In this document: piece after piece, positions 22,089 to 41,818 of the stretch
Numbering within the stretch: the first letter of the stretch is position 1
How the letters are laid out: every line of letters begins with the position of its first letter
IMG/VR virus record: IMGVR_UViG_2529292723_000011
DNA from: a virus
Lineage: Duplodnaviria > Heunggongvirae > Uroviricota > Caudoviricetes
Length of the DNA stretch: 43,489 nucleotides
Strand: one strand, 5' to 3'
Translations under genes and position numbers: made by a program
The notes under the pieces: generated by a model
Database searches by the model: none
What the model was told of the DNA's origin: nothing
Seen by the model: the letters and a program-made list of their open reading frames with translations, nothing else

Positions 22089-23686
22089 AAATGTCCACCA
22101 TTCCCACCCTTCTGGGGCCGGACGGCATGACATCGCTGCGTGAATATGCCGGTTATCACGGCGGTGGCAGCGGATTTGGTGGGCAGTTGCGGGCGTGGAA
22201 CCCATCGAGTGAAAGTGTGGATGCAGCCCTGCTGCCCAACTTTACCCGAGGCAATGCCCGCGCAGACGATCTGGTACGCAATAACGGCTATGCCGCCAAC
22301 GCCATCCAGCTGCATCAGGATCATATCGTCGGGTCTTTTTTCCGGCTCAGTCATCGTCCAAGCTGGCGCTATCTGGGCATCGGGGAGGAAGACGCCCGTG
22401 CCTTTTCCCGCGAGGTTGAAGCGGCATGGAAAGAGTTTGCCGAGGATGACTGCTGCTGCATTGACGTTGAGCGAAAACGCACGTTTACCATGATGATTCG
22501 GGAAGGTGTGGCCATGCACGCCTTTAACGGTGAACTGTTCGTTCAGGCCACCTGGGATACCAGTTCGTCGCGGCTGTTCCGGACACAGTTCCGGATGGTC
22601 AGCCCGAAGCGCATCAGCAACCCGAACAATACCGGCGACAGCCGGAACTGCCGTGCCGGTGTGCAGATTAATGACAGCGGCGCGGCGCTGGGATATTACG
22701 TCAGCGAGGACGGCTATCCTGGCTGGATGCCGCAGAAATGGACATGGATACCCCGTGAGTTACCCGGCGGGCGCGCCTCGTTCATTCACGTTTTTGAACC
22801 CGTGGAGGACGGGCAGACCCGCGGTGCAAATGTGTTTTACAGCGTGATGGAGCAGATGAAGATGCTCGACACGCTGCAGAACACGCAGCTGCAGAGCGCC
22901 ATTGTGAAGGCGATGTATGCCGCCACCATTGAAAGTGAGCTGGATACGCAGTCAGCGATGGATTTTATTCTGGGCGCGAACAGTCAGGAGCAGCGGGAAA
23001 GGCTGACCGGCTGGATTGGTGAAATTGCCGCGTATTACGCCGCCGCGCCGGTCCGGCTGGGAGGCGCAAAAGTGCCACACCTGATGCCGGGTGACTCACT
23101 GAACCTGCAGACGGCTCAGGACACGGATAACGGCTACTCCGTGTTTGAGCAGTCACTGCTGCGGTATATCGCTGCCGGGCTGGGTGTCTCGTATGAGCAG
23201 CTTTCCAGGAATTACGCCCAGATGAGCTACTCCACGGCACGGGCCAGTGCGAACGAGTCGTGGGCGTACTTTATGGGGCGGCGAAAATTCGTCGCATCCC
23301 GTCAGGCGAGCCAGATGTTTCTGTGCTGGCTGGAAGAGGCCATCGCTCGCCGCGTGGTGACGTTACCTTCAAAAGCGCGCTTCAGTTTTCAGGAAGCCCG
23401 CAGTGCCTGGGGGAACTGCGACTGGATAGGCTCCGGTCGTATGGCCATCGATGGTCTGAAAGAAGTACAGGAAGCGGTGATGCTGATAGAAGCCGGACTG
23501 AGTACCTACGAGAAAGAGTGCGCAAAACGCGGTGACGACTATCAGGAAATTTTTGCCCAGCAGGTCCGTGAAACGATGGAGCGCCGTGCAGCCGGTCTTA
23601 AACCGCCCGCCTGGGCGGCAGCGACATTTGAATCCGGACTGCGACAATCAACAGAGGAGGAGAAGAGTGACAGCAGAGCTGCGTAA
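22085..23686 (+). CDS. B: Portal protein B (533 aa)
   Basis: Near-identical to lambda gpB; lambda coordinate offset consistent with Nu1/A/W. Confidence 0.95.
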
Positions 23687-38860: not shown

Positions 38861-41818
38861 ATGGCAGTAAAGATTTCAGGTGTACTGAAAGACGGCACAG
38901 GAAAACCGGTACAGAACTGCACAATCCAGCTGAAAGCAAAACGTAACAGTACCACGGTGGTGGTGAACACGCTGGCCTCAGAAAATCCGGATGAAGCCGG
39001 GCGTTACAGCATGGACGTTGAGTACGGTCAGTACAGCGTTATTCTGTTGGTGGAAGGATTCCCGCCGTCACATGCCGGGACCATCACCGTGTATGAAGAT
39101 TCCCGACCCGGTACGCTGAATGATTTTCTCGGTGCCATGACGGAGGATGATGCCCGTCCGAGGCACTGCGCCGTTTTGACTGATGGTGGAAGAGGTGGCG
39201 CGTAACCGTCCGCGTGGCACAGAACACGGCAGCCGCGAAGAAGTCAGCCAGGATGCCGCACATCAGCCCGTGAGGCGGCAACCCTGCGACTGATGCTGCA
39301 GGCTCAGCACGGCGCCAGCACGTCAGCCGGACAGGCCGCGTCGTCGGCTCAGTCAGCGTCTTCCAGCGCAGGAACGGCATCACAAAGGCCAGTGAAGCAG
39401 CGAAAAGTGCTGCCGCTGCAGAGTCCTCAAAAAGGCGGCGGCCACCAGTGCCGGTGCGGCGAAAACGTCAGAAACGAATGCGCAGCGTCACAACAATCAG
39501 CAGCCACTTCTGCATCCACCGCGACCACGAAAGCGTCAGAAGCTGCCACCTCAGCCCGGGATGCGGCGGCCTCAAAAGAGGCAGCGAAATCATCAGAAAC
39601 GAACGCATCCTCGAGCGCCAGTAGCGCAGCTTCCTCGGCAACGGCGGCAGGAAATTCCGCGAAGGCGGCAAAAACGTCCGAGACGAACGCCAGGTCTTCT
39701 GAGACGGCAGCGGGACAGAGCGCCTCAGCTGCGGCAGGCTCAAAAACAGCGGCTGCGTCGTCTGCCAGTGCCGCGTCAACAAGTGCCGGGCAGGCCTCAG
39801 CCAGTGCCACCGCCGCCGGAAAATCGGCAGAAAGTGCCGCATCGTCTGCTTCAACAGCCACAACGAAGGCTGGCGAAGCCACTGAACAGGCCAGCGCAGC
39901 AGCGAGGTCTGCTTCTGCAGCAAAAACCTCTGAAACAAATGCAAAGACTTCAGCAGACAATGCTGCTTCCTCTAAGGCGGCAGCCGCATCGTCCGCTGGT
40001 TCAGCGGCGTCATCGGCATCATCTGCGTCTGCTTCAAAAGATGAGGCGACCAGACAAGCGTCAGCAGCGAAAGGTAGTGCCACGACAGCAACAACGAAAG
40101 CATCAGAGGCGGCAGGCAGTGCGACGGCTGCATCTCAGAGCAAAGTTGCTGCTGAATCCGCGGCAACGCGTGCCGAAACAGCGGCAAAACGGGCAGAGGA
40201 TATTGCTGATGCCGTATCTCTGGAAGATGCGAGCACGACGAAAAAAGGTGTGGTTCAGCTCAGCAGTGCGACCAACAGCACTTCCGAGTCACTGGCGGCA
40301 ACACCAAAGGCAGTAAAGGCAGCATATGACCTTGCTAACGCAAAATATACCGCTCAGGACGCAACGACGGCACGAAAAGGGATAGTTCAGCTCAGTAGCG
40401 CCACTAACAGCACATCTGAAACGCTGGCTGCGACGCCAAAAGCTGTTAAGGCGGTAATGGATGAAACGAACAAGAAAGCGCCCTTAAATAGTCCTGCACT
40501 GACCGGAACGCCAACAACGCCAACTGCGCCAAAAGGGACTAATAATACTCAGATCGCAAGCACGGCTTATGTGATGGCCGCGATTGCCGCACTTGTAGAC
40601 TCGTCGCCTGACGCACTGAATACGTTGAACGAGTTAGCGGCGGCGCTGGGAAACGACCCGAATTTTGCGACCACCATGACTAAAGCGCTTGCGGGTAAGC
40701 AACCGAAAGATGCCACCCTGACGGCGCTGGCCGGGCTTGCTACTGCGGCAGACAAGTTTCCGTATTTTACGGGGAATGATGTCGCCAGCCTGGCAACTCT
40801 GACAAAAGTCGGGCGGGATATTCTTGCGAAATCGACCGTTGCCGCTGTTATCGAATACCTCGGTTTACAGGAAACGGTAAATCAGGCTTCTGGCGCATTA
40901 CAGAAAAAACAGAACGGCGCAGATATTCCAGGAAAAGATACCTTCACCAAAAATATTGGTGCCTGCCGCGCATATAGCGCATGGCTGAATATTGGTGGCG
41001 ATAGTCAGACCTGGACAACCGCACAATTCATTTCGTGGCTGGAGAGTCAGGGGGCATTTAACCATCCTTACTGGATGTGCAAAGGCTCATGGGCTTATGC
41101 AAACAATAAGGTCATTACAGATACAGGTTGCGGAAATATTTGTCTTGCAGGTGCTGTGGTGGAAGTTATTGGCACTCGCGGCGCAATGACCATACGCGTT
41201 ACTACGCCGAGTACATCCAGCGGTGGCGGAATTACTAACGCTCAATTCACCTATATTAATCATGGTGATGCTTATGCTCCTGGCTGGCGACGAGACTACA
41301 ACACGAAAAACCAGCAGCCTGCATTTGCTTTAGGGCAAACAGGAAGCAGGGTTGCAAATGATAAAGCTGTTGGCTGGAACTGGAATAGCGGCGTTTATGA
41401 TGCAGATATCAGTGGCGCATCGACATTAATCCTCCACTTTAATATGAATGCGGGGAGTTGCCCTGCTGTACAGTTCCGCGTGAATTATAAAAACGGCGGT
41501 ATCTTTTATCGTTCAGCGCGTGATGGTTATGGCTTTGAAGCTAACTGGTCAGAGTTTTACACCACAACCCGCAAACCCTCTGCGGGGGATGTTGGTGCAT
41601 ATACGCAGGCAGAATGTAACTCAAGGTTTATTACAGGTATTCGCCTGGGCGGTCTGTCATCTGTTCAGACATGGAATGGTCCCGGCTGGTCTGACAGGTC
41701 AGGTTATGTCGTTACGGGTTCAGTTAACGGAAACCGTGATGAATTAATTGATACAACTCAGGCAAGGCCAATTCAGTATTGCATTAATGGAAGGTGGTAT
41801 AACGCGGGGAGTATTTAA
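38861..41818 (+). pseudogene. stf: Side tail fibre Stf, frame-disrupted between about 39180 and 39300 (N-part 38861-39205, remainder 39293-41818); its C-terminal variable part lies inside an invertible segment
   Basis: N-part MAVKISGVLKDGTGKPVQNCTIQLKAKRNSTTVVVNTLASENPDEAGRYSMDVEYGQYSVIL... matches lambda Stf; the second ORF carries the Ala/Ser-rich shaft and ...DPNFATTMTKALAGKQPKDATLTALAGL... conserved fibre region. Confidence 0.8.
40848..40873 (+). repeat. Gin/Cin/Pin-type inversion crossover site (gix-like) inside stf at the constant/variable boundary
   Basis: Reverse complement TTCCTGTAAACCGAGGTATTCGATAA closely resembles Mu gixL (TTCCTGTAAACCGAGGTTTTGGATAA, recalled from memory); it encodes ...IEYLGLQE... 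where such sites sit in Mu S and e14/Rac fibres. Confidence 0.7.

Follow-up and report, generated by a model that had tools for sequence, protein, structure and literature searches.

Organization of the contig

The window, by which we mean the whole 43,489-bp stretch of DNA analysed here, is the entire contig AQDH01000065.1 of GCA_000354955.1, a 2013 draft of the ETEC E. coli strain 2866550. This draft was produced from Illumina HiSeq 100-bp reads with Celera Assembler (PMC5469772). The contig is written in A, C, G and T only, with no ambiguity codes, and both of its ends lie inside repeats, IS100 on the left and a tail-fibre invertible region on the right. Its layout is best described against two lambdoid prophages of the complete genomes of the lineage, referred to here as P1 and P2.

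1–330, no strand assigned: left contig end, inside IS100 (istB end) interrupting the P1 integrase; a repeat boundary of the draft contig
1–19583, + strand: P1-unique arm with a DLP12-like early, nin and lysis region, matching P1 of ETEC-2264; the P2 alignment begins at 19584
19584–40330, + strand: lambda-like morphogenesis module common to P1 and P2, a mosaic of P1 and P2 alleles
40331–43489, + strand: P2-unique arm with the stf C terminus, tail-fibre assembly genes and an invertible tail-fibre segment, in which repeat the contig ends

The first base of the window corresponds to base 3001 of sequence L126, within istB (2499–3281). P1 adjoins a tRNA-Arg gene downstream of fimZ, and its integrase is annotated in ETEC-2264 as two partial pseudogenes flanking IS100; the gene is truly interrupted in the lineage, hence some of the decay at this locus is real. 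The left arm, whose DLP12-like gene set comprises ybcN, ninE, ybcO, rusA, quuD, essD, rrrD, rzpD and nohD, is 99.9% identical to P1 and has no second copy in the genome. Compared with P1 of ETEC-2264 (NZ_CP023349.1) it shows 4 substitutions and 0 indels over 19.6 kb.

The P1 alignment ends at window position 40330, and the 3.2-kb right arm beyond it is 99.8% identical to positions 2,543,878–2,547,468 of TW10828, which belong to P2 and not to P1. Right-arm sequence occurs at 8 places in the TW10828 record. P1 and P2 are separated by about 0.65–0.66 Mb in four complete genomes of the lineage, including TW10828 (NZ_CP127262.1), and their lambda-like modules are 95.9% identical over 17 kb in the complete genomes; the query matched three places in each complete-genome record. 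The contig is a chimera, joining the left arm of one prophage to the right arm of a different one.

One-base deletions in five genes

Within the shared module, the reading frames of A, W, B, D, E, FI, Z, U, V, G, T, H, M, L, I and lom are continuous, as a first-pass annotation of the sequence had stated for those of them it named (A, W, B, D, E, Z, U, V, G/T, H, M, L and I). The same annotation reported that C/Nu3, FII, K, J and stf are each split across frames, and the splits were confirmed by ORF listing and by a tblastn search of the window with intact homologues. In GenBank the truncated ORFs are themselves the protein records (EMV77358.1 and others), and the deletions are therefore present in the deposited record.

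Alignment to three relatives identified 32 indels private to the window, all of them one-base deletions, with 0 insertions, in five clusters. The events had been described as mostly one-base deletions, which is right as to their kind and falls short only in 'mostly', the count being 32/32. As a three-way MAFFT alignment fused adjacent one-base gaps in J and stf, a low-gap-cost pairwise alignment allowing for equivalent gap placements was used instead. Each deletion is given the coordinate of the window base immediately 3′ of the missing base.

24518–24650, + strand: C/Nu3 cluster of 4 deletions (24518, 24541, 24563, 24650), passing from frame 3 to frame 2
26864–26952, + strand: FII cluster of 3 deletions (26864, 26897, 26952), net −3, leaving three frame pieces
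33914, + strand: K, a single one-base deletion (GGTTCA to GGTCA) at the third position of a Gly codon, passing from frame 3 to frame 2
35622–35821, + strand: J cluster of 12 deletions, ten in 35622–35679 plus 35765 and 35821, net −12; the frame is left and then regained
39160–39482, + strand: stf cluster of 12 deletions, net −12; the frame is left and then regained

The deletions are clustered to a degree far from what chance would give, window 1–19583 having 0 indels. Exactly on sites at which P1 and P2 of TW10828 differ are 24 of the 32 deleted bases, a number that rises to 25 when the prophage pair of 90-9280 is added, against an expectation of ~1.3 from the background of 4.1% (binomial p ~ 4e-27). 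The other seven, which are off P1/P2 differences in both reference pairs, comprise the K site, five sites in J and one in stf, and most of them vary among related prophages. Third codon positions account for 21/32 deletions (p = 2e-4), resembling the SNP spectrum, in which the share is 67%. The earlier suggestion that several deletions lie in short T or C runs does not hold as a preference: the run length is 1 at 17 of the 32, 2 at 14 and 3 at a single one, which is close to background, and the deleted bases are G9, C8, T8 and A7. Net changes by multiples of three are seen in three of the five clusters (FII −3, J −12, stf −12), an outcome that chance alone would give with a probability of about 0.2. 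Programmed frameshifting was set aside as an explanation, the region of the G/T slippery site being normal, G and T intact and the breaks elsewhere.

In C/Nu3 all four deletions are on P1/P2 difference sites (C/T, T/C, G/A and C/G), and the cluster contains no other informative sites; those flanking it pass from P2-like (24437) to P1-like (24715). The three FII deletions are likewise all on difference sites, at the point where a run of 27 sites of one copy gives way to a run of 9 sites of the other. All three are also found in the sister draft AQDG, in a P2 context there and in a P1 context in the window. A metagenome contig (L130) with an 80-residue FII ORF proved irrelevant, as its alignment starts only at base 124 and the 26952 deletion is missing from it.

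Situated at a switch from a P2-like run (35131–35541) to a P1-like run (35714–38511) is the J cluster, in which 7/12 deletions are on P1/P2 difference sites. Among 124 J sequences without a single difference at the 72 retained positions, 9 of the 10 deleted sites of its core are polymorphic. Exact search for the deletion-bearing J 72-mer gave no match in IMG/VR or in GTDB representative genomes, and the J fragments occur in one contig only among about 15 billion proteins. The stf cluster had been placed at about 39180–39300, a location that stands with a larger extent, from 39160 to 39482. Here 11/12 deletions are on difference sites, interleaved with P2-like sites that form a short P2 island, with P1-like runs on either side.

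Of all the deletions, the single one in K is the least well accounted for. At this site P1 and P2 are the same in both reference pairs, and related prophages have T in 85 cases and C in 2; the deletion-bearing K 47-mer had no exact match in IMG/VR or in GTDB representative genomes. The K frameshift product is also present in the sister drafts AQDP and AQDM. As the frameshift appears in the drafts of three strains and is off the P1/P2 difference sites, it could be a true inactivation. Together with the N-terminal stf fragment, the K frameshift recurs in two or three other strains' assemblies of the same pipeline and lineage. Such recurrence could also mean inheritance, which would speak against an artefact.

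Allele mosaic and related assemblies

The shared module of the window is a mosaic of two parents. With the TW10828 pair as reference, the base of one or the other prophage stands at 848 of 849 informative sites of the window, in ~70 alternating runs; with the 90-9280 pair the figure is 678/678, in 60 runs. Differences from ETEC-2264 do not begin before the part that has a second copy; the 6 kb that follow the left arm contain 134 of them, and comparison with TW10828 over the same 6-kb stretch gives the P2 allele wherever the window departs from P1. Between the complete genomes TW10828 and 90-9280, the FI-FII-Z-U-V block is found in opposite prophages. Some exchange between P1 and P2 is genuine among complete genomes, and some of the mosaic in 2866550 could therefore be real.

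Comparison with closely related prophages had been proposed as a check, and it gave a clear outcome. In the complete genomes of TW10828 and 90-9280, both prophages have unbroken C, FII, K, J and stf genes, and ETEC-2264 P1 is intact over the part compared, up to E; none of the four long-read genomes of the lineage shows the lesions, P1 of ETEC-2264 being compared that far. The same module carries one-base deletions in three sister drafts of this project and lineage (14 in AQDG, 19 in AQDP and 31 in AQDM), as sets that differ from that of the window and overlap with it. The deletion-bearing sequences are found only in drafts of this project, and several are unique to this contig.

Origin of the deletions

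The deletions are best explained as a consensus artefact of paralogous prophages collapsed in the draft assembly, and would then be absent from the bacterium; from the sequence comparisons described here we put the probability of this reading at about 0.93. Strain 2866550 would carry two, and probably three, lambdoid prophages with lambda-like head and tail modules of ~96–97% identity, and an overlap-layout-consensus assembler is likely to have been unable to tell apart the 100-bp reads of the different copies. It would have built one contig running from the P1-unique arm, through a pile of mixed reads, into the P2-unique arm. In stretches dominated by one copy, the base of that copy would be called, yielding the fine mosaic of P1 and P2. 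In columns with the copies about equal, mostly at points of hand-over between P1- and P2-dominated stretches, no base would win and the column would be called as a gap, so that exactly those bases that differ between the copies would be lost. Inside the consensus caller, a mismatch may have been spread over two half-gapped columns, both of which were then called as gaps. The seven deleted sites off P1/P2 differences require either a third copy or strain-specific alleles, and we infer a third copy of the module in strain 2866550. A BLAST search of complete E. coli genomes with an IMG/VR J allele of the predicted third haplotype listed no ETEC-lineage genome among its best 60 matches.

Short-read or overlap-layout-consensus drafts are well known to contain collapsed or chimeric repeats, with consensus errors at paralogue variants, and the contig resembles such cases closely. 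It ends in repeats, its region exists in at least two near-identical copies, its arms derive from different copies and the module between them is a mosaic of alleles found in the copies. The errors are located on inter-copy variants, differ among the assemblies of near-identical strains and are missing from those assemblies of relatives that resolve the repeat. Unlike the usual errors of this class, bases are uniformly dropped here, rather than arbitrarily resolved or replaced by ambiguity codes.

The first-pass annotation had left the choice between genuine decay and clustered assembly or basecalling errors. Decay, with real frameshifts in C, FII, K, J and stf of a 2866550 prophage that no longer builds virions, is unsupported by these data and highly improbable. 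The deletions do break five essential morphogenesis genes in the deposited sequence, K and stf fragments are common to other strains' drafts, and the IS100 insertion in the P1 integrase is a true lesion of the lineage; yet decay predicts neither that 32/32 lesions should be one-base deletions nor that 24–25 of the 32 should occupy the ~4% of sites distinguishing two resident prophages. Nor does it account for 10 deletions within 57 bp alongside an adjacent 19.6-kb stretch that departs from ETEC-2264 by 4 substitutions and 0 indels, for the same FII deletions in the P1 context of the window and the P2 context of AQDG, or for sets of deletions that vary among sister drafts while the long-read genomes are intact. 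In pseudogenisation, close relatives would inherit the lesions regardless of assembly method; here they do not, and the lesions are tied to paralogue SNP sites (75–78%), with no insertions, larger indels or nonsense mutations among them. A partly biological origin, with some of the P1/P2 mosaic of 2866550 being real and the K frameshift a true lineage-specific inactivation of a tail-tip gene, is unlikely, though less so than decay of all five genes.

Of the two kinds of error that had been offered, an error of assembly consensus is favoured and one of basecalling is not. Homopolymer under-calls like those in 454, Ion Torrent or nanopore reads would account for every event being a one-base deletion and for the few that are in 2-base runs, including that in K (GGTT to GGT), but the reads are from an Illumina HiSeq, a platform not prone to such under-calls. 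The run lengths match background, with only 1/32 in a run of at least 3, and raw errors would be expected across the whole contig, whereas the 19.6-kb single-copy arm has 0 and the deleted sites coincide with paralogue SNPs; a basecalling origin is scarcely conceivable. Stripping of the ambiguity codes that mark mixed positions (R, Y, K, M and others) would remove exactly the positions that are missing and leave a window of A, C, G and T, and is nonetheless very improbable. If done when the window was prepared, it would conflict with the identical length of the public contig and the window (both 43489) and with GenBank proteins that are already frameshifted; if done before deposit, it would be indistinguishable from gap-calling by the assembler, and thus a variant of the same artefact and not a biological alternative.

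In the cryptic lambdoid prophages of E. coli K-12 (for example DLP12, Rac, Qin and e14), decay takes the form of large deletions, IS insertions and scattered mutations shared by descent. The DLP12-like left arm and its IS100-interrupted integrase are like these prophages, but clusters of one-base deletions on paralogue SNPs are not, and we know of no cryptic prophage that has decayed by such clusters missing from close complete genomes. In lambda PaPa, a real one-base change relative to Ur-lambda splits stf into orf-401 and orf-314. The side tail fibre gene of the window is also split by frameshift; unlike the PaPa lesion, however, it has 12 deletions in about 320 bp, with 11/12 on P1/P2 differences and the frame regained. 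Homopolymer indels are typical of 454, Ion Torrent and nanopore assemblies, in which, as in the window, one-base deletions make apparent pseudogenes, but the events described here come from an Illumina platform, show no homopolymer bias and are confined to the duplicated module.

Taken as it stands, the contig would represent a prophage in decay, five of whose morphogenesis genes are broken, and also a P1/P2 recombinant phage; under a collapsed-repeat origin both readings would be wrong. The pattern of dropped bases mimics pseudogenisation, but it can be recognized without reads by a combination of signs: clustered indels that are exclusively one-base deletions, enriched at third codon positions and placed at the differences from a second resident copy, in a contig with arms from different loci. 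The problem is project-wide, with at least four deposited drafts of CS7 ETEC (AQDH, AQDG, AQDP and AQDM) carrying pseudo-frameshifts in this module. They affect pseudogene counts, calls of prophage intactness and protein databases, into which the truncated fragments have now passed.

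Frame breaks in the morphogenesis genes

The genes C/Nu3, FII, K, J and stf, described as split in the first-pass annotation, are broken both in the ORF map and in tblastn alignments of intact homologues with the window: C/Nu3 and K each pass from frame 3 to frame 2, FII lies in three frame pieces, and J and stf each exit their own frame and later re-enter it. No break occurs in the frames of A, W, B, D, E, FI, Z, U, V, G, T, H, M, L, I and lom. Aligned with phage PhiR30_1 and two prophages from complete E. coli genomes, the window has private indels that are one-base deletions without exception, 32 altogether, and no private insertions.

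One-base deletions called from the alignment, and their coincidence with sites that differ between prophages P1 (DLP12-like) and P2, matched with alignments tolerant of equivalent gap placements. Coordinates are the window base just 3' of the missing base.
C: 24518-24650; 4 deletions; 4/4 at difference sites
FII: 26864-26952; 3 deletions; 3/3 at difference sites
K: 33914; 1 deletion; 0/1 at difference sites
J: ten within 35622-35679, plus 35765 and 35821; 12 deletions; 6/12 at difference sites, 7/12 with P2 of strain 90-9280 added
stf: 39160-39482; 12 deletions; 11/12 at difference sites

The first-pass remark on short T or C runs did not hold, the 32 deleted bases showing neither homopolymer preference nor base bias. 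Codon position 3 accounts for 21 of them (p = 2e-4), matching the 67% share that this position has among the region's ordinary SNPs.

By exact look-up, the sole match of the frameshifted N-terminal J fragment is contig AQDH01000065.1 (GCA_000354955.1), which at 43,489 bp is exactly as long as the window, and the J fragments occur in one contig only among ~15 billion catalogued proteins. GenBank's own proteins for this contig, labelled Escherichia coli 2866550, are already truncated fragments, and the deletions therefore belong to the deposited record and not to preparation of the window. Strain 2866550 is a CS7 ETEC from Bangladesh, sequenced as 100-bp Illumina HiSeq reads (SRR446798) and assembled with Celera Assembler (PMC5469772).

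A contig chimeric for two prophages

The contig is a chimera of P1 and P2, both of which carry a lambda-like morphogenesis module. Window positions 1-23000 are 99.9% identical to P1 of the complete ETEC genomes ETEC-2264, LR882978, 90-9280 and TW10828, in all four of which P1 adjoins the tRNA-Arg gene downstream of fimZ. Positions 39900-43489 are 99.8% identical to P2 of TW10828, not to P1; P2 is inserted there between potC and potB, ~0.66 Mb from P1, and the two prophages run in one direction with respect to the window. A genuine junction of P1 on the left with P2 on the right would require loss of the whole interval between them, which, going by established E. coli gene maps (argU to potB in K-12), would include many essential genes. 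The contig stops at a repeat on either side, the left end lying within IS100, the element splitting the prophage integrase, and the right within the tail-fibre region, of which one related genome has 8 copies.

In the single-copy arm (window 1-19583) there are 4 sites differing from ETEC-2264 and 0 indels. Homology to P2 starts at 19584, and from 20134 on, 134 differences from ETEC-2264 accumulate within the next 6 kb. Across the shared module the window has the P1 or P2 base at 848 of the 849 sites distinguishing the TW10828 pair, in ~70 alternating runs; with the 90-9280 pair as reference, this holds for 678/678 sites, in 60 runs.

The deleted bases are inter-copy differences: P1/P2 difference sites make up 4.1% of positions, yet take 24-25 of the 32 deletions (binomial p 4e-27 to 5e-29). 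The clusters in C, FII and J sit where the mosaic switches between P2-like and P1-like runs, and those of C and FII retain no informative site; the stf cluster falls within a short P2-like island. Among 124 related IMG/VR J sequences, exact at all 72 retained positions, 9 of the 10 deleted positions of the dense J cluster are variable, and the J deletions off P1/P2 differences are consistent with a third haplotype (G, C, A and T there) present in the population.

Seven deleted sites have no explanation by P1/P2 differences. The K deletion is isolated within a long P1-like run and common to three drafts. It falls on the third base of a Gly codon that varies among related prophages (T in 85, C in 2), and so probably reflects the same artefact, arising through a third, inferred copy; it may otherwise be a real frameshift.

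Sister drafts and the origin of the deletions

In three sister drafts from the same project and CS7 lineage, AQDG (strain 2866750), AQDP (2850400) and AQDM (2853500), this module shows one-base deletions numbering 14, 19 and 31 respectively, and at most 3 inserted bases. The deletions again lie mostly at P1/P2 difference sites, in sets that differ yet overlap. The window's three FII deletions recur in AQDG, on a contig entered from the P2 lysis genes, and the P1/P2 mosaics of the two agree at only 209/294 informative sites. In the J core, the bases lost from AQDP are exactly the five P1/P2 difference sites, and AQDM and the window have lost five further bases relative to AQDP. Pseudo-frameshifts affect portal, C, E, FI, FII, V, L, K, I and J on AQDP01000023.1, AQDM01000037.1 and AQDG01000028.1, and truncated proteins from these drafts are held in public protein databases.

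Almost certainly, the assembler pooled reads of the paralogous modules, calling the majority allele where one copy was dominant and a gap where copies were balanced. Plausibly, the caller would set a mismatch as two half-gapped alignment columns and call each a gap.

The frame breaks are no biological feature. Of the causes first proposed, assembly error is the one supported. Genuine prophage decay cannot explain the data, given that events run in one direction only and coincide with paralogue SNPs, that the single-copy arm is clean, that deletions swap contexts from draft to draft, and that the long-read genomes are intact, with C, FII, K, J and stf whole in P1 and P2 of TW10828 and of 90-9280 alike. 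Basecalling error can be dismissed, given the Illumina platform and the lack of homopolymer bias. The case serves as a cautionary example and flags four deposited drafts.

Other features of the two prophages

The FI-FII-Z-U-V block lies in opposite prophages in the complete genomes of TW10828 and 90-9280 (stretches of related prophages, L003 7464-9957 and L005 30316-32806 versus L002 7464-9954 and L131 12271-14764), with WP_000158855, WP_000753006, WP_000975083, WP_000683145 and WP_001766691 in P1 of TW10828 and in P2 of 90-9280, a sign either of real recombination between the prophages of this lineage or of a mis-join in one 'complete' assembly. The P1 integrase is interrupted by IS100 in the lineage (window 1-330; 622-3744 of L126, the ETEC-2264 P1 stretch), genuine damage to prophage excision function that is separate from the artefactual frameshifts. 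In P1 of 90-9280, ETEC-2264 and LR882978, an IS66-family element (tnpA, tnpB, tnpC; L002 15840-18428) sits between I and J, immediately upstream of the latter; TW10828 and the window lack it.

In the nin region, a minus-strand cassette of two genes (window 9754-12743) encodes an ABC/AAA_15-type ATPase of 595 aa and a partner of 322 aa. The pair matches PDC-M62, a candidate defence system in PADLOC (A: 4e-44, B: 3.5e-33), with weaker hits resembling Septu PtuA/PtuB, and is probably a prophage-borne anti-phage system. Window 41821-43489 (L005 45801-48029) holds tail-fibre assembly genes in opposing orientations and alternative fibre C-termini, adjoined in complete genomes by a small recombinase gene, with which they form a Pin/Gin-type invertible tail-fibre segment; the contig breaks within it. 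P1 also carries an iss/bor serum-survival lipoprotein gene (window 18201-18494 region; L126 21201-21494) and, between Q and the lysis genes, an nmpC/ompD-like porin gene, both ordinary lambdoid morons.
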